From a bacterium (GTDB lineage: Bacteria; UBA8248), in contig OZ241326.1 of assembly GCA_965199855.1 (NCBI GenBank), forward strand, positions 928,001 through 992,000: a stretch of 64,000 nt of DNA, written 5' to 3'. Made by a program: the position numbers and the translations under genes. This document shows positions 46,878 to 56,659 of this stretch, piece after piece (the first letter of the stretch is position 1; every line of letters starts with the position of its first letter). A model generated the notes under the pieces. That model was not told the origin of the DNA. It was given only the letters and a program-made list of their open reading frames with translations, and made no database searches.

Positions 46878-47005
46878 AAAAAATACACCCCCGGAGAGGC
46901 CGGAGGCGTCGCGAGGGTGAGATCGTTTCCCCGTGCCGCGGGGAATTGCCTGCGAAGATTTTCTCCTTGTTGAGAAAAGCGGGGCAGGCATCGATCAGCT
47001 AAAAC
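46878..47005 (-). ncRNA. tracrRNA
   Basis: Anti-repeat 47005->46969 (GTTTTAGCTGATCGATGCCTGCCCCGCTTTTCTCAAC) complementary to the crRNA repeat, then AAGG, two hairpins and a T6 run; TTGACA on the minus strand at 47041-47036. Confidence 0.85.
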
Positions 47006-47055
47006 TGATATATTCGTAGGGCATCCCGCGGATTTTGTCAAGGGGGGATTTGGAC

Positions 47056-50013
47056 ATGCCGCCTCTCACGCTGGGACTCGACCTGGGCCCCAACTCCATC
47101 GGCTGGACGCTCATCGAAGAGAACGAAGCGGGCGACCCCGCGCGCCTGAAGGCCATGGGCGTCCGCGCGTTTCAGGAGATGGTGGACAGGAAGACCAAGA
47201 CGCCGAAGAACCACAAGAGGCGGGACGCGCGGCAGGCGCGCCGCCAGCGCGGAAGGCGAAAGATGCGGCGCGAGACCCTCCGGCGCCAGCTCGTTCGGGC
47301 CGGGCTTCTGCCCGAGGACGCCGGGGCGCTGCGCGGGCTGTTTCACGAGGCCGACCCCTACGAAGTCAGGAAGCGCGGCCTCGACGAGGAGCTGACGCCG
47401 CGCGAGCTGGGCCGCGCCATCTTCCACCTGAACCAGAGGCGGGGGTTTCTGAGCAACCGCAAGGTGCGCGACTCGGGCGAGAAGAAAAAGGAGGACGGCG
47501 TCGCCCTCAAGGAAATCGGGGAGCTGAAAAAGGAAATCAAGGAAGCCGGAAGCCGCACGCTGGGCGAGTTTCTGGCGGGCAAGCCCAAGAAGAGGAGCCG
47601 CCGCACGGAGCGGAGAATGTATGAGGAGGAGTTCGACGTCCTCTGGCGGAAGCAGGCGGAGTTTCACCCCGACTTGCTCACCGACGCCCTTCGCGCCCGC
47701 CTCCGCAAGACCCTGTTCTTCCAGCGGCCCCTGAAGGTTCAGAAGTTTCTCGTCGGGAGATGCACCTTCGAGCCGCACAGGAAGCGATGCCCCTGGCGCC
47801 GGCCGGAGGCGCAATGGTTCCGCGCGCTTCAGGACGTGAACCATCTCGAGATCAAGGACCCGAAAACGCGCCTGTACCGCCCTCTCCGGGAGGAGGAGAG
47901 AGAGGCGATCAAGGGACTGCTCCGGGAGCGGAAAACGCTTTGCTGGAAGAGCATCCGCAGGGCGCTGGGTCTCCACGAGGGCGAGACCTTCAACATCGAG
48001 GACGGCGGCAAGAAGAACCTCATCGGCGCGCGCACGCTCATCGCCGTCCGCAAAATCCTCACGAAGGAGACGTGGGAGGCCATGCCCGAAGCCGACCGCG
48101 CCGCCTTCTTCGAGGACCTGTTCAGCATCGACAAGGAAGAGCTCCTCCTGAAGCGGCTGGAGCGGCGCTGGAATCTCTCGCGCGAGCAGGCGAACGCGCT
48201 GCTGAACACGGAGTTTCAGCCGGGCTACGCCAGCCTCTCTCTGCGCGCGATTCGCAGAATCACGCCGCACCTGGAGCGGGGGCTGAACTATCACGACGCG
48301 TATCAGGAGGAGGGCTATCAGCGCGAGGATCAGAAGAAAGTCGAGGCGGGCGACGCGCTCGCTCCCGCCCCGGCTCTCAGGAATCCCATCGTCCAGAAGG
48401 CGATCAACGAGACGCGCAGGGTGGTGAACGCGATCATCCGGGAATACGGAAAGCCGGACATCATCCGCGTGGAGCTCGCCCGCGACATGAAGCTCAGCCA
48501 GAAGCGCAAGAAGGCGCTCGACCTCCAGAACAGAAAGAACAGGGACATGAACGACGAGGCGCGCAAGCTGATGGCGGAGCTCGGAGTGTTCGACAACGGG
48601 GGCAACCGGCTCAGATACCGCCTGTGGAAGGAGCAGAAGTGCAAGTGCCCCTACACGGGCAGGAGCATCGGGGGGCGCGATATTTTCAGCCCCGAGTTCG
48701 AGATCGATCACATCCTCCCCTACAGCCGGACGCTGGACGACTCCTACATGAACAGAACCCTCTCCCTGGCCTCCGCCAACCGGGCGAAGGGAAACAATAC
48801 CCCCCGGGAGTGGAAGGAGGGCGGCGAGGGGTTCGCCGACATGCTCCAGCGCGTCTCCGCCATGAAGGAGATGCCCTTCTCCAAGAGGCGGCGCTTCGAG
48901 CAGAAGGAGATCGACACGGACGGCTTCATCGACCGCCAGCTCAACGACGCCCGCTACATCAGCCGCGAGGTGAGCCGGTATCTCCAGGCGCTCGGCGCGG
49001 AGGTTCAGGTGACGACGGGGCAGGCCACCGCCGCCCTGCGCCGCTCCTGGCGCCTCGACGGAATTCTCGCCATCGACTCCGACTTGGAGAAAAACCGCGC
49101 CGACCATCGCCACCACGCCATCGACGCGCTGGTCATCGCCCTCACGAGCCGCAAGCTGTTTCTCGCCATCGCGCGCCTCTCCGCCGAGCGGCGCGAGGTT
49201 CTGGGAAAGAAGCGCTTTCCGCTTCCGCCGCCCTGGCCCGGTTTCATGGACGAGGCGCGGGAGAAGGTGGGCGGCATCGTCGTCTCCCACCAGCCGCTCG
49301 GGAAGATCACCGGCGCCTTCCACGAGGAGACCGCCTACGGGCGCATCGAGCATGAGGGGCGCGAGGCTTTCGTCCGCCGGGTTCCGCTGGAGTCGCTCAC
49401 GGCGAAGCAGGTGGAGAAAATCGTGGACGCCCGCGTCCGGGAGCTGGTGAGCGATCGCATGGCCGCCCACGACAACAAGGCCAGGGACGCCTTCGCCAAC
49501 AAGCCCCTGTGGCTGGAGCATTCCCGCAAGCGGACGGGAAGAACGCGAATCAGGACGGTTCGCGTCGCCGAGAATCTCAACCCGGACGGCCTGTTCGGGG
49601 TGAAGCGGCAGGGCGAGGAGACGCCCTTCAAGTATTACGCATACGGGAACAACCACCACGTCGAGATCATCGAGAACGAGAAGACGGGCAGGCGAAAGGG
49701 CGTCGTCGTCACGGCGATGGAGGCCGCCCGGCGCGCCCGCCGGGAAGGAGTCCCTATCGTCCGGCGCAACCATGGCCCGGAATGGCGCTTCGTCATGTCG
49801 CTTTCCATCAACGATATGGTGAGGCTCGACAAGCCCGTGAACGGCTGCGATCTGTATCGGGTTCAAAAACTGTCAGCAACAGGGCAGATGCAAATGATGT
49901 TGCGGGCGCATACGGCCGCTACCCTGGATGACAATGCAACATGTGTAAGGCTAAACCCCAACACGCTCAGGGGACGAAAGATCTCCGTCGATCCTTTGGG
50001 GAACATAATCTGA
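47056..50013 (+). CDS. cas9: Type II-C Cas9, compact (985 aa), catalytic motifs intact
   Basis: RuvC-I LGLDLG, Arg-rich bridge helix, RuvC-II VELARD, HNH EIDHILP...N, RuvC-III HHAIDA. Confidence 0.97.
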   Translation: MPPLTLGLDLGPNSIGWTLIEENEAGDPARLKAMGVRAFQEMVDRKTKTPKNHKRRDARQARRQRGRRKMRRETLRRQLVRAGLLPEDAGALRGLFHEADPYEVRKRGLDEELTPRELGRAIFHLNQRRGFLSNRKVRDSGEKKKEDGVALKEIGELKKEIKEAGSRTLGEFLAGKPKKRSRRTERRMYEEEFDVLWRKQAEFHPDLLTDALRARLRKTLFFQRPLKVQKFLVGRCTFEPHRKRCPWRRPEAQWFRALQDVNHLEIKDPKTRLYRPLREEEREAIKGLLRERKTLCWKSIRRALGLHEGETFNIEDGGKKNLIGARTLIAVRKILTKETWEAMPEADRAAFFEDLFSIDKEELLLKRLERRWNLSREQANALLNTEFQPGYASLSLRAIRRITPHLERGLNYHDAYQEEGYQREDQKKVEAGDALAPAPALRNPIVQKAINETRRVVNAIIREYGKPDIIRVELARDMKLSQKRKKALDLQNRKNRDMNDEARKLMAELGVFDNGGNRLRYRLWKEQKCKCPYTGRSIGGRDIFSPEFEIDHILPYSRTLDDSYMNRTLSLASANRAKGNNTPREWKEGGEGFADMLQRVSAMKEMPFSKRRRFEQKEIDTDGFIDRQLNDARYISREVSRYLQALGAEVQVTTGQATAALRRSWRLDGILAIDSDLEKNRADHRHHAIDALVIALTSRKLFLAIARLSAERREVLGKKRFPLPPPWPGFMDEAREKVGGIVVSHQPLGKITGAFHEETAYGRIEHEGREAFVRRVPLESLTAKQVEKIVDARVRELVSDRMAAHDNKARDAFANKPLWLEHSRKRTGRTRIRTVRVAENLNPDGLFGVKRQGEETPFKYYAYGNNHHVEIIENEKTGRRKGVVVTAMEAARRARREGVPIVRRNHGPEWRFVMSLSINDMVRLDKPVNGCDLYRVQKLSATGQMQMMLRAHTAATLDDNATCVRLNPNTLRGRKISVDPLGNII

Positions 50014-50030
50014 AGCCCAGGAGACCGCCC

Positions 50031-50924
50031 ATGATCAAAAGAATCGTAGAGATCGGTAGTCCCGCCCGTCTCTCGCTCAGCAAGAAGCAGCTGAAGGTCG
50101 AGCGGGAGGAGTTCGCCGCCGAGTCGCTCCCCGTGGAGGATCTGGGGGTTCTGATTCTCGACCACCCCGCCATCCGTCCCTCACAGGGGCTGCTATCCGA
50201 GTGCATGAAGAACAACGTGGCCGTCGTCATGTGCGACGAGAAGCACCTGCCCGCCTCCGTCCTGCTTCCCCTGGACGGCCACACCCTGCACAGCAAAATC
50301 GTCAGGGAGCAGGCCGCCGCCACCCCCGGCAGAATGGGCCGCATCTGGCGGGCGATTGTCCGCGCGAAGATTCTCGCCCAGGCGGACGCCCTGGACGCCT
50401 TTGACGAATACGGCGGCCCGCTTCGCGCCATCGCCGGGCGCGCCGGACGGGAGAACCCCGCCCACGCCGAGGCGCGCGCCGCGCGGATGTATTGGCCCAG
50501 AATGTTCGGCGAGGACTTCAGGCGCAACCGCGCCCTTCCCGGCGTGAACCGCCTGCTGAACTACGGCTACTCGCTCGTGCGCGCGGCGACGGCGCGGGCG
50601 GTCGTCGCCGCGGGGCTTCACCCCGCCTTCGGTCTCCACCACCACAACCAGTACGACGGCTTCTGCCTCGCCGACGACCTGATGGAGCCTCTGCGCCCGA
50701 TGGTGGACCGCAGGGTGCGCCTCATGCGCGACGCGCCGGACTTCTGGGGGGAGGAGCCGAAGCTCGGCAGGGAGGAGAAGCGCGAGCTGCTGGGCGCGCT
50801 GGCGGGCGAGGCGCGGCTCGGCGGCAGGACCTACCCCCTTCTCACCGCCCTGCAATACTACGCCGCCGGCGTTCGCCGCGTCCTCTGCGGAGAGGAGAAG
50901 GAGACGGACATCCCCCGGCCATGA
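50031..50924 (+). CDS. cas1: Type II Cas1
   Basis: EARAARMYW, LNYGY, GLHHHN, LADDLMEPLRP. Confidence 0.96.
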   Translation: MIKRIVEIGSPARLSLSKKQLKVEREEFAAESLPVEDLGVLILDHPAIRPSQGLLSECMKNNVAVVMCDEKHLPASVLLPLDGHTLHSKIVREQAAATPGRMGRIWRAIVRAKILAQADALDAFDEYGGPLRAIAGRAGRENPAHAEARAARMYWPRMFGEDFRRNRALPGVNRLLNYGYSLVRAATARAVVAAGLHPAFGLHHHNQYDGFCLADDLMEPLRPMVDRRVRLMRDAPDFWGEEPKLGREEKRELLGALAGEARLGGRTYPLLTALQYYAAGVRRVLCGEEKETDIPRP

Positions 50925-51250
50925 CCTTCGGGGGGCTGCGCTCCATGTGGCTCATGGTGATGTTCGACCTGCCGACCGACACGAAGGCGGCGCGCAAGGC
51001 GTATCAGGCGTTTCGGGGCGCGCTGCTGGAGGACGGCTTCACCATGCTCCAGTATTCGGTCTATGCCCGCCACTGCCCGAGCAGCGAGAACGCCGGGGCG
51101 CACGAGAGGCGGGTGAACGCCGCCCTGCCCCCCGACGGGGAGGTGCGGCTCCTTCTTTTCACCGACGCGCAGTTCTCGCGCATGAAAATTTTTCACGGAA
51201 AGGTTCGGGGGGCGACGGAGAAGGCTCCCGATCAGGTCTCGCTGTTCTGA
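50921..51250 (+). CDS. cas2: Cas2
   Basis: MWLMVMFDLPT, LLEDGFTMLQYSVY; ATGA overlap with cas1; no csn2 or cas4, hence II-C. Confidence 0.96.
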   Translation: MTFGGLRSMWLMVMFDLPTDTKAARKAYQAFRGALLEDGFTMLQYSVYARHCPSSENAGAHERRVNAALPPDGEVRLLLFTDAQFSRMKIFHGKVRGATEKAPDQVSLF

Positions 51251-51280
51251 CCCGCTTCGGGAGCCTGAACCCCAACCGGT

Positions 51281-51340
51281 GCTGATCGATGCCTGGCGCA
51301 ATTCACAACTACAAGAAGTGACTGGTTTATTGCGTTTCCC
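51281..51340 (-). ncRNA. Solitary-repeat crRNA-like RNA (scaRNA/CreA-like): guide ...AAACCAGTCACTTCTTGTA plus degenerate repeat
   Basis: Minus strand 51309->51281 is GTTGTGAATTGCGCCAGGCATCGATCAGC; the 13 nt just 5' of it match 51636-51648; 5' end uncertain. Confidence 0.72.
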
Positions 51341-51396
51341 AGCTTCTTGCCCTACTATCAAATGACCCGTGGCGCGGGGAGAAGCCTATGTGCTGA

Positions 51397-51507
51397 CTAG
51401 CGGGATTTTGGCTTCGACCGCTTATGCGGCTTTACTGGTACCGTTTTGGGACCAGGCTTGTTGCCAGGACGAACTTGCCGCACTTTCTTCTGGCAATTAT
51501 TAGCCAT
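51397..51507 (-). CDS. 36-aa cationic Pro-rich peptide MANNCQKKVRQVRPGNKPGPKTVPVKPHKRSKPKSR (candidate Cas9-repressed toxin/effector)
   Basis: Strong SD AAGGAGG 5 nt before the ATG; promoter-like sequence upstream; 8 K, 4 R, 6 P, no acidic residues. Confidence 0.65.
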   Translation of the reverse strand: MANNCQKKVRQVRPGNKPGPKTVPVKPHKRSKPKSR

Positions 51508-51628
51508 AGCTCCCTCCTTTCTCCTCTGGTCATCACCCAGAGGTGGAAAAGTCAGGGCGAACGAGCGGATTTCCCCGCGCCACGGGGAACTCAAGTAGAT
51601 TTCATCTCTAACGCCCACCGCGTATATG

Positions 51629-51657
51629 ATACTACGTCACTTCTTGTAAGAAATCAA
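51629..51657 (-). promoter_or_regulatory. Sigma70-like promoter containing the 13-nt guide target
   Basis: TTGATT (51657-51652), 17-nt spacer, TAGTAT (51634-51629); A/T-rich region upstream. Confidence 0.7.
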
Positions 51658-51806
51658 TAAAATAATCTGGAAAATAGCATATTTTATTCCCATCCGCCGC
51701 AATCGCTTGGCTTGATGATATTTTCCTTGCGCGCTCCCGGTAGATGAGCCCCGCCAAGATACTCGCCTTTGTCCGTCCTCGGTTGTGTTAATCAATGCGC
51801 CTAGCA

Positions 51807-51873
51807 GACAGAAAAGGCTCCCTAGCGGATCACGTTGTTGTGACCTGCTTCCGGGAGCCTAAACCTAACCGGT
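51807..51873 (+). repeat. Diverged direct copy of the cas2 3' end and leader (other copy 51214-51280)
   Basis: 54 of 68 aligned columns identical by hand; translates TEKAP*RITLL* versus cas2 TEKAPDQVSLF*. Confidence 0.8.
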
Positions 51874-51894
51874 TCAAACCGTTCGAGAGAACAT

Positions 51895-53377
51895 ATTATA
51901 GCTGATCGATGCCTGCCCGCAATTCACAACTGACATACCCAGTGCTCCGCCGCGCGCTTCATTATAGCTGATCGATGCCTGCCCGCAATTCACAACTGAC
52001 GTTTTCGGCGACGTCGTACTCAATCGATTATAGCTGATCGATGCCTGCCCGCAATTCACAACCCAGTCGCTGGCCTTCGCGCTCGGCCACGATTATAGCT
52101 GATCGATGCCTGCCCGCAATTCACAACTCGCGCACGTAACGCTCCGCGTCGTCCTCGATTATAGCTGATCGATGCCTGCCCGCAATTCACAACTCAAGCA
52201 CGCGGGAGAGCCGGACTTCTCCATTATAGCTGATCGATGCCTGCCCGCAATTCACAACGACCTCGCGCTCAGGCTGCGCGCTGAGTTATTATAGCTGATC
52301 GATGCCTGCCCGCAATTCACAACCGTGGGGGGCGAAGGTTCTCACGCGAGGCGATTATAGCTGATCGATGCCTGCCCGCAATTCACAACCCGGCAAACCC
52401 CTTTGAACCGCCTTTTTTCATTATAGCTGATCGATGCCTGCCCGCAATTCACAACTTCGGCAATTTGTCGTTCCGGCAACCGTTGATTATAGCTGATCGA
52501 TGCCTGCCCGCAATTCACAACCGGTGAACATTTCCCATCTGCCTCTCGAAGATTATAGCTGATCGATGCCTGCCCGCAATTCACAACCGCATGCGCTGGG
52601 CGGCGCTCGCGCATCTCATTATAGCTGATCGATGCCTGCCCGCAATTCACAACTGCGCGGGGACATTTGCCGTGGCGTCCCTATTATAGCTGATCGATGC
52701 CTGCCCGCAATTCACAACTCAGGGGCGCATGGATCCACCTGGACGGGGATTATAGCTGATCGATGCCTGCCCGCAATTCACAACCGATCCTGACGCAGCC
52801 GGAGGTCGTCGCGCATTATAGCTGATCGATGCCTGCCCGCAATTCACAACCGCGAGGGGCGGACAGGCCCAGCCCATGCGATTATAGCTGATCGATGCCT
52901 GCCCGCAATTCACAACCCTCCGCGATCATGTCCTCCGTCATCCCCTATTATAGCTGATCGATGCCTGCCCGCAATTCACAACATCCCCGCTCCCGTCCTC
53001 TTTCGAGTTGGCATTATAGCTGATCGATGCCTGCCCGCAATTCACAACGGATATCATTCAATGGATTCTCCCTCAACCATTATAGCTGATCGATGCCTGC
53101 CCGCAATTCACAACATCGGCCGCCGCCCGGGCGCGGACGCCCACATTATAGCTGATCGATGCCTGCCCGCAATTCACAACTGTGCCGCCCGAGGACGAGC
53201 GGCATCGGCATTATAGCTGATCGATGCCTGCCCGCAATTCACAACTGAAGGCGATGACGCCGTTCGCCGTCGGCGATTATAGCTGATCGATGCCTGCCCG
53301 CAATTCACAACTCTCGCCGCGGGTCGATGGCAACGCATTCAATTATAGCTGATCGATGCCTGCCCGCAATTCACAAC
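51895..53377 (-). CRISPR. Type II-C CRISPR array: 23 identical 36-bp repeats, 22 spacers of 29-30 bp
   Basis: crRNA-sense repeat GTTGTGAATTGCGGGCAGGCATCGATCAGCTATAAT; orientation inferred from tracrRNA complementarity and the terminal TATAAT. Confidence 0.98.
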
Positions 53378-53714
53378 CGCAGATCAGGAACATCGTCGCG
53401 CTCGGAATCGGCGCCATATTCGCCTTGCGAGCGTTGATCGAGCGGACGGCGAGGAATTGATGGCGGGCTGACAGCTCGCCGAAATTCATAATTTTTTGCG
53501 GTATTTTTATTATTCCAACGGGGTTTGTCCCCCCCCCCGGTCGCCACGAAAAACGAGGTCGAATTTCCCCGGGTTCCAGCCCCCGGGACGGCGCGCGTCA
53601 AAGGCGCGACATCGGGGCGGAACGGCTCGACTGAAAGGGGGCATGAAAAGCAGATTGTATCTAAATTTATGCAAAAGCGCGATCCGCGAGAACGCGCCGG
53701 TCGGGGTCGCCGGC

Positions 53715-55682
53715 TTACCGCGCCGCCTGCGCCAGCGCGGTTGCCGCGTCCGCCTGCGCCCAGGCGGCGCTCATCGCTTCCCAGGTCTCGCCCATGGCGG
53801 CCTTCCCCTTTTCCACCGCCGCCTGCGCCGTCGTAGTTCCCGCGGCCCGCGTCTGCTCCCACGCCGCTTTCGCCGCGCCCAGGGTCGCCGCCGCCTGCGC
53901 CAGCGCGGCGTCCATTTTCGCCCACGCCGCCCGCGCCTTTCCCTTCCCTCTCGCCGCCGCCTTCGCCGCGTCCGCCGCCTTCAGGGCCTTTTCCATGGCC
54001 GCCTTCGCCGCCGCATACCACGTCGTCTGCGCCCTGTTCGTCTCGTTGCGCGCCGCCTTTATCGCCCGCCAGACCGCCAGGGTCGCCGCGTCCGCCCGGT
54101 CGAGCGACGCCTGAGCCTTCTCCTTCCCCCTCGCCGCCGCCCTCAGCGCGGCGTCCGCCTGCGCCAGCGCCGCCCGCGCCTTTCCCTCAGCCGCCTTCGC
54201 CCGCGACGCTCTCGTCCGGGCCGCGGCTCTCTCTCGCGCGGCCTTCGTCAAAGCCGTCCGCGCCTGCGCGGCCTGGGCCTTCTCCCTCGCCGCGTCCGCC
54301 CGGGCGCGCGCCGCCGACTCATGTCTTGACGCCCGGAGGCTCTCCGCATACGCCCGAGCCGCCTGCGCCTTCGCCGCGTCAAAGGCCGCCGCGGCCTGCT
54401 CCCGCGCCGCCTGCGCCCGAGCCATCCTCACCGCCGCCGCCCGATCCCGCGCCGCCGACGCGTGGGCCCTCTCCAGCGCCGCGTGCGCTTTTTTCAGCGC
54501 CGCATCCGCCCGCGCCCACGCCGCCTTCGCTTTTCTCCGGGCCGTCTGAGCCGCCCGCGACGCCTTCACCCGCGCCGCCGCCGCTTTCCACGCCGTCTGC
54601 GCCGCGCGCTCCCGCGCCGTCGCTCTGTTCCTCACCGCCTTCGCATTGGCCGCTCTCGTCTGGGCCGCGGCTCTCTCCCGCGCCGCCTTCTCGTGCGCCA
54701 TCCTCGCCTTCGCCGCCCGCGCATGCGCCGCTCGCGCCTTCGCCGCGGCTCTTTCCCGCGCCGCCTGGGCCTGAGCCATCCGCGCCTTCGCCGCCCGCCC
54801 CGCCGCGTCCGCCTGGGCGCGCGCCGCCTGCGCCCTCGCCGCCTGCGTCCGCGCGGTCTCCCACGCGGCCCGGGCCCTCGCCGCCTGCGCCCGCGCGGCG
54901 CTCCACGCCGTCTGCGCCGCGCGCTCCCGCGCGTCCGCCGCCTGCCACGCCTCATCCGCCGTCCGCAGCCCCGCCTTCACCTGAGCGTTCTGCGCCGCCG
55001 CCATCTTTTCCAGCTTCGCCGCGGTGGCCGCCTGCGCGGCCTTCATCTTCTCCCACGCGGCCTGCGCCGCCGCCTCGTCCCCGTTCCACAGCGCCGCGGC
55101 CCTCTCTCTCGCCGCCGCCCGCACCCGGGCCATGCCCTCCGCGTATATCCCCAGCTCCGGGAGAGCGTCTTCCAGCCCGGCGGGCCCGGGCCTGGTCCCC
55201 CGAAGCAGCCGCGCTTCCCATTCCTCGCGCGCCGCGTGCGCCTTCTCCCACGCCGCGGACGCCCTTTCCCACGCCGCCTTCGCCTTCTCCCACGCGGCCT
55301 GGGCCGCCGCCTCGAGCGCCGCCGCCTCGCGCGCCGCGGCGTCCGCCTTCTCCTGGGCGGCCTGCGCCGCCTTTTCTCTCGCCGCGGCTTTTTTCCACGC
55401 CGCCTGCGCCCGCGCCGCCGGGGTCGCCGCCGCCCTTTCCCACGCCGCGGCGTCCGCCTTCTCCCGCGCCACCGCCGCCAGCGCCGCCTTTTCTCTCGCC
55501 GCCGCCCTTTCCCACGCGGCCTGCGCCGCGCGCGCCCGCGCCGCCGCCCTTTCCCGCGCCGCGAGGGTGGCCCGCGCCCGCGCCGCCAGGGATTTCTCTC
55601 GCGCCGCGCTCGCCCCGAATGACGGGACGGGCGCGGCAAGCGCGATTGCCGCCGCCAGCGCGCAGATCAAAAGCCTCCGCAT
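53715..55682 (-). CDS. Secreted Ala-rich alpha-helical repeat protein (AAWE[KR]A repeats)
   Basis: Signal peptide MRRLLICALAAAIALAA; 655 aa of low-complexity helical repeats. Confidence 0.7.
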   Translation of the reverse strand: MRRLLICALAAAIALAAPVPSFGASAAREKSLAARARATLAARERAAARARAAQAAWERAAAREKAALAAVAREKADAAAWERAAATPAARAQAAWKKAAAREKAAQAAQEKADAAAREAAALEAAAQAAWEKAKAAWERASAAWEKAHAAREEWEARLLRGTRPGPAGLEDALPELGIYAEGMARVRAAARERAAALWNGDEAAAQAAWEKMKAAQAATAAKLEKMAAAQNAQVKAGLRTADEAWQAADARERAAQTAWSAARAQAARARAAWETARTQAARAQAARAQADAAGRAAKARMAQAQAARERAAAKARAAHARAAKARMAHEKAARERAAAQTRAANAKAVRNRATARERAAQTAWKAAAARVKASRAAQTARRKAKAAWARADAALKKAHAALERAHASAARDRAAAVRMARAQAAREQAAAAFDAAKAQAARAYAESLRASRHESAARARADAAREKAQAAQARTALTKAARERAAARTRASRAKAAEGKARAALAQADAALRAAARGKEKAQASLDRADAATLAVWRAIKAARNETNRAQTTWYAAAKAAMEKALKAADAAKAAARGKGKARAAWAKMDAALAQAAATLGAAKAAWEQTRAAGTTTAQAAVEKGKAAMGETWEAMSAAWAQADAATALAQAAR

Positions 55683-55963
55683 CGTTTAGAGCCCCCCGTT
55701 GTCCGCCGCCTTCTCTCTCGCCGCCGTCCTGATCGTATGGCGGATCGCCCGCGCCGCATTCATTCCCGCGACCGATCGTCGCCGGACAAAGGCCTGAGCC
55801 TTGCGAACGCGGCGCGCATAGCGATCCTCCATCCGCACCGATGCCGTGATTTCCTTTATATTATATCTGATTGGCGTCTGACCGCAATTCGCGGCGAGCC
55901 GGTATGTAATATACTATATTTCGCAGGCGGAAAGGGCGGTTTTAACGGGATTCGGAGGGGAGC

Positions 55964-56659
55964 ATGGCGCGGCGGGTGATTCTGCTATCGACCCTGGGGC
56001 TGCTGATCGCGCTGGCTGGCGCGCCGGGCTACCGCTGGCTCCGCGCGCGTCTCGCCCGGGATCTCCCGATATACTCGCGGCTGCCCGATTTTGAACTCCG
56101 AGACGCGGCGGGCCGCGCCTTCGCGCGCGAGCGCCTGCGCGGGAAAGTCTGGGTGGCGGACTTCATCTACACGCGCTGCGAGGACGCCTGCCCCCTGCAG
56201 ACGGCCGAGATGCGAAGGCTCCAGCAGGCGTTCTCGGGCGAGGGGGATTTCCGGCAGATTTCCATCACCGTCGACCCCGCCCACGACACGGGGGCGCGTC
56301 TGGCGGCCTACGCGCGCAAATACGGCGCCGAGAGGTCGCGCTGGTTCTTTCTCACCGGCGAGGAGGGGGCGATTCGGGAGCTGGCGCTCAAGGGCTTCCG
56401 CCTGAGCTACGCGACGAAAAAAGCCGCGCTTCCCGATAAATCCCCCGGCGGATGGATTCTCCGGCTCGCGCTTCCCCGCGCCCGCGCCCACCACCCCGGA
56501 CACGGGGAGGGGAAGGACGCGCCCGGCGTCCTGATTTCCCACAGCTCGCGCTTCGTCCTCATCGACAGGCGCTTCAACGTCCGGGGCTATTACCACAGCG
56601 ACGACCCCGCTTCCCTGGAGAAACTGAGGAGGGAGCTGCGGATGGTTCTCGGGGAGTGA
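55964..56659 (+). CDS. SCO1/SenC family copper chaperone
   Basis: FIYTRCEDACP (CxxxC), ITVDP..D, HSSRFVLID. Confidence 0.92.
   Translation: MARRVILLSTLGLLIALAGAPGYRWLRARLARDLPIYSRLPDFELRDAAGRAFARERLRGKVWVADFIYTRCEDACPLQTAEMRRLQQAFSGEGDFRQISITVDPAHDTGARLAAYARKYGAERSRWFFLTGEEGAIRELALKGFRLSYATKKAALPDKSPGGWILRLALPRARAHHPGHGEGKDAPGVLISHSSRFVLIDRRFNVRGYYHSDDPASLEKLRRELRMVLGE

Follow-up and report, generated by a model that had tools for sequence, protein, structure and literature searches.

A widespread small-protein family with a predicted panhandle mRNA, represented by an apparently horizontally acquired 36-residue basic protein gene within a Cas9 locus

Toxin modules under CRISPR repression have been described for types I and V-A, and their existence in other types is posed as a question in the available text of a 2025 review (PMC12737573). 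As far as that text and a related preprint extend, CreA matches toxin promoters only partially (PMC12737573; bioRxiv 10.1101/2023.03.03.530964), and the accessible part of the preprint describes scaRNA and tracr-L as repeat-derived RNAs with 11–15 nucleotides (nt) of complementarity, with which Cas9 binds promoters or 5′ regions without cleavage (bioRxiv 10.1101/2023.03.03.530964). A related design of short-guide, CRISPR-regulated modules appears in the accessible portion of a further preprint (bioRxiv 10.64898/2026.06.02.729485). Within the available portions of this literature no Cas9-repressed toxin was found; the type II mini-arrays in the supplementary tables of bioRxiv 10.1101/2023.03.03.530964 might include such loci. 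Here we analyze a 64,000-nt stretch of bacterial DNA (assembly GCA_965199855.1, contig OZ241326.1, positions 928,001–992,000; lineage UBA8248), hereafter the window, in which an unannotated minus-strand gene at 51397..51507 encodes a strongly basic protein of 36 amino acids (aa) between cas2 and the CRISPR array of a Cas9 locus. The gene is real, conserved and mobile, carries a predicted panhandle mRNA, is by its composition foreign to the genome, and belongs to a family that is not CRISPR-associated. Taken as a whole, we consider it probable that this is a genuine basic mini-protein gene of a widespread family, carried on a self-contained panhandle-mRNA cassette that was horizontally acquired here.

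Two groups of described systems resemble the arrangement at this locus. CreTA/CrePA modules (type I; CreR, a related regulator, occurs in types I and V-A) likewise have an ectopic degenerate repeat inside a CRISPR-cas locus, next to a short spacer-like stretch whose match to the promoter of a neighboring small gene is limited to seed length (13 nt here). They differ in that the effector here would be Cas9 with a trans-activating CRISPR RNA (tracrRNA), a type for which the available text of the review names no module; in that one repeat is present here and two there; and in that the putative toxin here is a 36-aa basic protein whose family lies almost wholly outside CRISPR loci. The F. novicida scaRNA and S. 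pyogenes tracr-L share with this locus a promoter match of similar length, the 13-nt match here being known from sequence alone; their targets, as given in the portions of the literature available, are a lipoprotein operon or cas9 itself in types II-B and II-A, unlike the foreign mini-protein gene in a putatively II-C-like locus that would be targeted here.

The minus-strand frame 51507..51397 consists of 36 codons followed by a TAG stop and translates to MANNCQKKVRQVRPGNKPGPKTVPVKPHKRSKPKSR, a product with 8 Lys, 4 Arg, 6 Pro and no Asp or Glu, and with neither a signal sequence nor a hydrophobic stretch. On re-reading the sequence, this open reading frame (ORF), its Shine-Dalgarno (SD) sequence and the adjoining hairpin were all as the original prediction had described them, and its remark on atypical codon usage was borne out by the G+C content at third codon positions (GC3), which is 0.53 in the ORF versus 0.88 in cas9, 0.86 in cas1 and 0.88 in cas2; the frame is enriched in codons that are uncommon for the host genome. 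Among the 322 ATG-initiated ORFs of at least 30 aa in the window, it is the sole case with a Lys content of at least 20%. A chance ORF was ruled out by this unique Lys content together with homologues that keep the same frame and the pattern of synonymous and nonsynonymous change described below. A multicopy miniature transposable element, considered despite the inverted repeats that flank the gene, was also ruled out, as both the peptide and a 496-nt region around it are single-copy in the 3.04-Mb genome.

Further evidence for a protein-coding gene comes from its relatives. A tblastn search of 60 related genomes returned two significant relatives, one in a sister species of the same genus (G012; expect value (E) 2.5e-10) and one in a domain-level relative (G048; E 1.2e-8). 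One genome per species was then scanned with a pattern combined with tblastn, which gave 82 confirmed stretches, corresponding to 79 loci distributed over Alpha-, Gamma- and Zetaproteobacteria, Nitrospinota, Chloroflexota, Zixibacteria, Planctomycetota, Acidobacteriota, Verrucomicrobiales, Patescibacteria and others; culturable hosts among them include Ruegeria, Sulfitobacter and Algihabitans strains. With the same profile, 303 family stretches were confirmed in metagenome contigs, 80 of which were retained, and 13 loci in viral contigs; the 80 and the 13 make up a set of 93 viral and metagenome loci with flanks of up to 5 kb. In a HMMER profile search against 1.84 billion representative proteins, 96 matches reached E ≤1e-3 and five of these E ≤1e-10; nearly all were 33–127 aa long. 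Family proteins measure 33–45 aa and share a near-invariant 17-residue core, KPGPKTVxVxxHxRSxP, accompanied by M-A-(x)-C near the N-terminus, by R-x-V-R and, usually, by a C-terminal Cys. An SD-like tetramer lies within positions −4 to −20 in 69 of the 79 members.

Over the 16-codon core of 78 sequences, the proportion of synonymous differences (pS) is 0.81 and that of nonsynonymous differences (pN) 0.15 (pN/pS = 0.19), and entropy at codon positions 1, 2 and 3 is 0.43, 0.41 and 1.62 bits, respectively. These values indicate that selection acts on the amino-acid sequence, with synonymous sites saturated across phyla, and together with the homologues in many genomes they establish the suspected unannotated peptide as a genuine coding gene. 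By the same figures, the earlier suggestion of a toxin acting purely at the RNA level, in the manner of CreT, is disfavored, although the CreT idea survives in an altered form through a CRISPR RNA (crRNA)-like degenerate repeat with a 13-nt match to the putative promoter of the gene, considered below.

Existing libraries contain little that could name the family. Pfam gave no match at E ≤0.01 to the window peptide or to its 73-aa extended frame, the two sequences compared with it; NCBIfam and PHROGs gave none at E up to 10 for the window, G012 and G048 peptides; nothing significant was found in a protein atlas, where the best score was 0.83, against unnamed clusters. The 24 database proteins retrieved by a word search contain no Pfam domain and bear ‘hypothetical protein’ as their best name, and a full-text literature search for the core motif returned no paper. 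On sequence grounds we regard the family as a widespread small-protein family without a family-library match, with members in some phages as well as hundreds of bacteria. Two copies of the core are present in planctomycete and certain other versions (KTVxVxxHxRS in L044, L063–L065, L071, L073, L074 and L077 and in proteins P0008, P0031, P0039 and P0101). When domain fusions were sought, only P0101 (183 aa) was informative, most longer matches looking like upstream start miscalls; behind its two cores come a hydrophobic segment and then a C-terminal region, which means that the motif is also found at the N-terminal end of a larger protein. In the window copy, Arg takes the place of the C-terminal Cys that is usual in the family. 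The same replacement arose independently in L032, whose close relative L031 retains Cys (both are from Nitrospinales), and the residue is thus either not strictly required or these copies are decaying.

An AlphaFold2 model built on a 61-sequence alignment has a mean predicted local distance difference test score of 72 and no secondary-structure elements, so that this strongly basic protein is predicted to be intrinsically extended. Judged by composition and disorder, its most likely role is to bind a polyanion, be it structured RNA, the ribosome or DNA. Binding to nucleic acid or ribosomes had been proposed for the peptide from the outset; the composition is compatible with it, the binding itself being an extrapolation from that composition. 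Its likeness to proline-rich antimicrobial peptides, also pointed out earlier, holds for composition and ends there, as the peptide has no signal sequence and neither library nor structure searches link it to a known family. More generally, proline-rich antimicrobial peptides and small basic ribosomal proteins are similarly short, cationic and Pro-rich and are alike in the predicted extended state (the match to bL35 is insignificant, at E 0.69), whereas the present family shows no significant similarity to them, has neither signal peptide nor precursor, is encoded by bacteria and phages, and lies near ribosomal operons (rpsO, thrS-infC) at only a few loci.

A further set of observations concerns the architecture of the mRNA. 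The SD region GGAGAAAGGAGGG occupies 51512..51524 on the minus strand, 4 nt before the ATG, and contains GGAGAAAGGAGG at 51513–51524, 5 nt ahead of the ATG; its GGAGAAAGGAG is unchanged in the sister species. Immediately 5′ of the SD region, and overlapping it, is a 7-bp hairpin (51523..51543, minus strand) with arms CCTCTGG and CCAGAGG at 51523–51529 and 51537–51543, which is part of the minimum free energy (MFE) fold and which in G012 has undergone compensatory changes to CCTTCGG/CCGAAGG. Farther out, a perfect 15-nt inverted repeat brackets the ORF, with its 5′ arm at 51572..51586 and its 3′ arm at 51366..51380 (both minus strand), the latter 16 nt past the stop codon. The 246-nt RNA of the window folds at −104.9 kcal/mol (z −6.6), a value equalled by none of 200 shuffles, and in this MFE fold the two arms pair into a 15-nt stem that closes the molecule, the SD lying partly paired inside a long hairpin.

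This organization recurs in the family. An exact inverted repeat between the flanks, situated 60–115 nt before the start and 10–30 nt past the stop, beats all 30 shuffles at 26 of 77 loci, its sequence varying by lineage, and the duplex energy of a locus’s own flanks beats that of all 40 mismatched partners at 18 of 78 loci, compared with about two expected. In an RNAalifold consensus of seven Rhodobacteraceae-type loci, a 14-bp closing stem shows changes on both sides at five pairs in at least one sequence, three of them in two or three sequences, and a covarying hairpin stands immediately 5′ of an invariant AAGGAGGTG. Between lineages the sequence of the untranslated regions (UTRs) is not conserved, only the pairing. 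Rfam contains no match at the cassette in the window (E ≤1) or in 12 family loci (gathering score). We read the 5′–3′ stem, from sequence and covariation, as closing the mRNA into a panhandle, which most likely controls mRNA stability, translation or access to the SD. Type I toxin mRNAs are comparable in having a short ORF, a strong SD beside or inside structure, and long-range 5′–3′ pairing; their products are hydrophobic membrane peptides, as stated in the available text of the review (PMC12737573), in contrast to a protein with 12 Lys or Arg, 6 Pro and no hydrophobic stretch. A cis or trans antisense RNA likewise belongs to such systems; none was identified for the cassette, whose stretch is carried by no run recorded as RNA.

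To characterize the genomic setting, all ORFs of at least 80 aa within 3.5 kb of 78 loci were clustered. No shared neighbor, whether antitoxin or modifying enzyme, was conserved among these 78 loci: the largest cluster, an IS1595-type transposase, covered 7 of them, and smaller clusters of 3–4 loci each comprised a second transposase (weak IS1-type matches), SocA/MqsA-like antitoxins, ImmA/IrrE-type peptidases, DNA methylases and thrS. A Pfam scan of 121 of 285 selected neighboring ORFs placed chromosomal copies beside his genes, truB-rpsO-pnp, Fic-tRNA-thrS-infC, type I restriction, AbiEii/RloB, toxin-antitoxin genes, and phage portal, capsid and terminase genes. Among 59 scanned of the 125 ORFs listed for viral contigs, neighbors included a head-tail adaptor and major head protein (L110), terminase and portal (L116, L119), replication genes (L113), an integrase (L115), and RecT, exonuclease and endolysin (L120), and the gene is sometimes opposite in strand to flanking phage genes. 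The gene travels as a self-contained cassette without a fixed partner gene. Phage morons are independent promoter–gene–terminator units inserted between phage genes. The cassette behaves like one of these, because it is found in phages, near transposases and defense genes, and in ordinary intergenic regions; as with morons, it is a small self-contained unit with no conserved neighbor that lies between terminase, portal and head genes, and it also occurs in chromosomes. Its closing 5′–3′ stem, extreme shortness and cross-phylum conservation, however, are not general moron features.

Transfer RNA or tRNA-like genes lie approximately 70–270 nt from the peptide gene at 7 of 79 genome loci (8 when the distance is extended to 1.5 kb), namely L004 (1323–1412, G012), L020, with a tRNA to which no type is assigned, L031, L038, L045, L048 and L067. 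In G012 the gene concerned is an odd 90-nt tRNA-Pro(tgg)-like gene 77 nt downstream of the peptide gene. Such proximity possibly reflects integration beside tRNA genes. Furthermore, a dyad, GACTC-N12-GAGTC, is present about 90–120 nt before the start codon at 6 of 74 loci (L011, L036, L040, L041, L061, L062) and in none of 74 control regions; by its sequence it looks like an operator-like site for a regulator.

CRISPR genes are nearly absent from these surroundings. In tblastn searches with the Cas9, Cas1 and Cas2 of the window, the only match among the 79 genome loci was L015, which is G012, and none of the 93 viral and metagenome loci matched; a CRISPR-like array flagged in L161 by a k-mer screen proved to be a 60-nt tandem repeat. 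Lying at a cas9 locus does not characterize the family. The proposed check for co-location of homologues with cas9 thus came out negative (cas9 or cas1 within 6 kb at 1 of 79 genome loci; no homologue of the window’s Cas9, Cas1 or Cas2 in the flanks of up to 5 kb at the 93 viral and metagenome loci), and because of these counts the family cannot be viewed as a dedicated Cas9 modulator, the role that had also been suggested for the peptide.

In the window itself the cassette nevertheless sits inside a Cas9 locus. This comprises cas9 (47035–50013, plus strand; Pfam RuvC_III, HNH_4, Cas9_a), cas1 (49941–50924, plus; Pfam Cas_Cas1), cas2 (50921–51250, plus; Pfam CRISPR_Cas2), and an array at 51895..53379 with 23 repeats of 36 nt and 22 spacers. 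A candidate tracrRNA (46885..47004, minus) has its anti-repeat at 47004..46969, located by local alignment to the repeat, followed by tail hairpins that are kept in G012 and by a terminator-like stem at 46909..46885 with the T-run ATTTTTTGG. The crRNA strand of the array is taken to be minus, because that strand is complementary to the tracrRNA, whose own strand is fixed by its terminator. Read in the crRNA sense, the repeat is GTTGTGAATTGCGG...TATAAT, and in type II-C repeats this end often includes a −10 box of the repeat’s own. Gene order and the small Cas9 make the locus a candidate for a II-C-like type.

The junction after cas2 records how the cassette may have come to lie there. A 67-nt segment comprising the 3′ end of cas2 and a downstream hairpin (51214..51280, plus) recurs as a second, diverged copy at 51807..51873 (plus; 73% identity), which then leads into a normal junction to the array; the two copies, spaced 593 nt, bound an inserted unit. 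The order after cas2 is accordingly 30 nt, a degenerate repeat, the cassette, the cas2-end copy, the normal junction and the array, whereas in five genomes of the same genus with the same cas2 and no peptide the array follows about 55 nt past the cas2 stop. That direct continuation in the relatives, a fall in GC content to 0.45–0.55 across 51300–51900 and the GC3 of 0.53 together mark the cassette, as far as sequence can tell, as foreign, horizontally acquired DNA that lies in a 593-nt unit inserted behind cas2. The direct repeat looks like the trace of a single-crossover homologous insertion carrying a cas2-end/repeat segment. This setting between degenerate repeat and array, the cas2-end copy, the 15-nt inverted repeat and the tracrRNA candidate elsewhere all go beyond what was previously noted. 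G012 has a matching layout, with the cassette inverted relative to cas2 and with its tRNA-Pro-like gene added; with an invertible switch in mind, contigs of four public runs were inspected and all have the window orientation, bearing in mind that contigs cannot reveal rare inversions.

Other observations concern the vicinity of the locus. In run X8, from a closely related strain (95–99% identity), a 45-nt deletion (51329–51373) takes away part of the closing stem’s 3′ arm and leaves the ORF and both 13-mers described below intact. G012 has a second cas locus on its contig 1 (L098), where a gene with a Cas9-like N-terminus begins about 190 nt past cas2, a gene order unlike that of the window. 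Just past the leader end of the array, a 655-aa minus-strand ORF (53715–55682; 77–84% GC) consists of many imperfect repeats phased at 15–21 nt and has no Pfam match. At 55860–55897 lies a repeat-like sequence that is 76% identical to the CRISPR repeat across 38 nt and may be a remnant or due to chance; it is 2.5 kb past the array, shortly upstream of an ORF whose start is at 55964.

Within the locus, one arrangement would tie the cassette to Cas9. A degenerate CRISPR repeat with a 13-nt spacer-like GTCACTTCTTGTA occupies 51281..51322 on the minus strand (repeat 51309..51281, 13-mer 51322..51310) and is a candidate crRNA-like RNA. Its repeat portion, 51281–51309, matches 29 nt of the 36-nt repeat, being truncated at the 5′ end with one indel and one mismatch, and lies within the CRISPR-cas locus and outside the array, 585 nt from the first array repeat; GTCACTTCTTGTA abuts the repeat boundary exactly, in the order spacer then repeat, as in a crRNA. 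The 13 nt recur at 51636..51648 on the plus strand, where GTCACTTCTTGTA is followed by AGAAATCAAT and forms a candidate Cas9 target; all 13 positions that abut the repeat agree, compared with 2 of the distal 17 (by eye). This copy falls within the spacer of a putative promoter of the peptide gene (51629..51657, minus), called by eye with a −35 element TTGATT at 51657..51652, a 17-nt spacer and a −10 element TAGTAT at 51634..51629, which agrees with consensus at 8 of 12 positions; a promoter scan reported none.

Both copies are preserved in G012. Amid otherwise unalignable flanks, a 24-nt run comprising the repeat end and the 13-mer is identical, as is a 21-nt promoter run, TTGATTTCTTACAAGAAGTGA, that holds 12 of the 13 nt; the flank AGAAATCAA beside the candidate target is also kept, and both runs persist despite inversion of the cassette relative to the repeat. 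Conservation at the repeat thus covers a 13-nt seed plus the repeat’s first 11 nt, which would form the lower stem needed by Cas9. With the anti-repeat, the degenerate repeat is predicted to form a duplex of −42.2 kcal/mol, compared with −54.5 for the canonical repeat and with a mean of −15.1 and a best value of −25.4 for shuffles. When metagenome contigs were scanned for exact 24-nt matches, the junction between repeat and 13-mer did not turn up again. By eye, the promoter 20-mer is itself a partial dyad, TTCTT-AC-AAGAA.

Protospacers were sought for the arrays at hand. The 22 spacers of the window had no match in phages, six weak matches in plasmids (E 0.4), and, in 42 genomes of the host’s family, repeat-like matches and GC-rich partial matches of 27–31 nt only. 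The 178 spacers in the arrays of four relatives, compared with this genome and the fetched loci, gave only matches of 16–18 nt outside their own arrays, and the 77 spacers of the G008 array, compared with 51 genomes of the class, phages and plasmids, gave a single 31/34 match at E 0.04. Spacers 11 and 16 of that array (L104) overlap by 24–25 nt on opposite strands, so that one target region was sampled twice, and they share 17–18 nt with this genome near 799,480.

Against this background, a Cas9-repressed module that governs a putative toxin, a type II analogue of CreTA/CrePA, is a tentative addition to the favored explanation, and one that we think doubtful while taking it seriously. In such a module, a crRNA-like RNA, perhaps read through from the peptide mRNA, would join the tracrRNA in guiding Cas9 to the promoter at 51636–51648; the 13-nt seed match would let Cas9 bind without cutting and block RNA polymerase; and loss of Cas9 or its inhibition by an anti-CRISPR would lead to overproduction of a peptide that harms the cell. 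The candidate protospacer adjacent motif (PAM) that it needs is AGAAATCA. The coincidences in its favor are considerable: the identity begins exactly at the repeat boundary in crRNA polarity, its second copy is flanked by the putative −35 and −10, the sister species has kept the 24-nt and 21-nt runs and the AGAAATCAA flank through inversion and divergence, seed and first 11 repeat nucleotides are the very parts conserved, and the degenerate repeat could still pair with the anti-repeat. Precedents exist in the 11-bp tracr-L match, in scaRNA and in the partial matches of CreA to toxin promoters, as far as the available portions of that literature describe them. The arrangement is nevertheless confined to two genomes with one shared origin, none of the spacers compared above (22 from the window, 178 from relatives) offers a credible protospacer from which a PAM could be defined, and no run recorded as RNA carries the degenerate repeat. 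The 13-mer may also be a recombination scar of the insertion or the inversion, and the conservation of the promoter copy could be explained by a protein repressor, since the 20-mer is a partial dyad and 6 of 74 other loci carry an upstream dyad. The family is otherwise unlinked to CRISPR, the peptide is a toxin only putatively, and the junction did not recur in the metagenome scan. That repeat, 13-nt guide and peptide gene would constitute the first Cas9-dependent (type II) CRISPR-repressed module, with a guide supplied partly by the transcript of the putative toxin itself and with a phage-derived, polyanion-binding mini-protein that would kill the cell or arrest its growth once Cas9 is lost or inhibited, is a claim we make with still more reserve and regard as rather improbable. 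A different reading of the same repeat takes 51281–51380 on the plus strand as a second or former tracrRNA, with the 13-mer in a tracr-like tail and the ORF a mere bystander. The 1-nt indel relative to the array repeats resembles a bulged anti-repeat, and the plus-strand order of elements, with a hairpin CAAGAAG...CTTCTTG and then CCCGTGGCGCGGGG, recalls the tracrRNA candidate upstream of cas9. That candidate, however, is complete with terminator and conserved in G012, whereas 51000–52100 contains no terminator-like site, the window and G012 do not share a conserved tail past the 13-mer, the five relatives have no such element after cas2, and CCCGTGGCGCGGGG belongs to the closing stem of the peptide mRNA in both genomes, all of which make this reading unlikely. 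A by-eye likeness between the closing-stem arms and a tracrRNA hairpin (14/15 nt) was judged coincidental, because the hairpin loop of the G012 tracrRNA differs and the cassette arms are the same.

Two further explanations concern the product of the gene. If the frame were untranslated or its product irrelevant, the element would act as RNA only, as a CreT-like tRNA-sequestering or other RNA toxin or as an mRNA akin to type I toxin-antitoxin systems; the highly structured RNA with its closing stem and partly paired SD, the abundance of codons rare for the genome, and the tRNA-Pro-like gene 77 nt downstream in the sister locus would suit this idea. We consider it very unlikely, because selection acts on the amino-acid sequence, which is kept across phyla over saturated synonymous sites; in addition, pairing alone, not UTR sequence, is conserved between lineages, Rfam has no match, and the peptide lacks the hydrophobic segment of type I toxins. 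Least likely of all is an anti-CRISPR or other direct Cas9 modulator on mobile elements. The occurrence of the family in phages and mobile contexts, and here inside a cas9 locus, would accord with such a role, yet 171 of 172 other loci have no nearby cas genes, many hosts and contexts are housekeeping regions, an inhibitor inside the host’s own CRISPR locus would defeat that locus, and the searches, which did not include the PADLOC library, tied the family to no known anti-defense protein. The explanation that we favor is instead that of the self-contained cassette. Its own promoter and a strong SD just behind the small hairpin would drive expression; the 5′ UTR would pair with the first 10–30 nt past the stop to form the panhandle, which would set mRNA stability or translation; the extended peptide would engage a polyanionic partner such as structured RNA, the ribosome or DNA; and in this genome the cassette would have arrived within the 593-nt unit between degenerate repeat and array. 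Several points weigh against it. In about half of the loci, and notably in the two-motif forms, no closing stem is detectable; none of the runs recorded as RNA carries the window stretch; the window copy, lacking the C-terminal Cys, may be decaying; and the binding partner is argued purely from composition and disorder, with mitoribosomal bL35 as the only match in PDB, insignificant as noted above. Part of the invariance of KPGPK stems from how the loci were obtained, since the genome, viral and metagenome loci were all fished with patterns containing KPGPKTV, which leaves the synonymous turnover unaffected. Finally, the 13-nt match at the repeat flank suggests that, in this genus, the CRISPR location is perhaps not merely incidental.

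Proteins this short escape gene callers and family libraries. The relatives found here span at least 10 phyla as well as phages and share a conserved core and an mRNA architecture, yet they have no informative database name, and the family offers a tractable entry to the unstudied small proteins of marine and sediment bacteria and their phages. Were the link to Cas9 true, it would answer the question of modules outside the studied types that the 2025 review, in its available text, leaves open (PMC12737573), and would add a peptide toxin governed by a 13-nt Cas9 guide, of relevance to anti-anti-CRISPR defense and to engineered kill switches. Were it not real, the locus would still illustrate how foreign cassettes lodge at the junction of cas2 and repeat by way of a duplicated cas2 end. 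Irrespective of that link, the peptide defines, on the evidence of its homologues, a new small-protein family, pan-bacterial and also found in phages, with a predicted panhandle mRNA.

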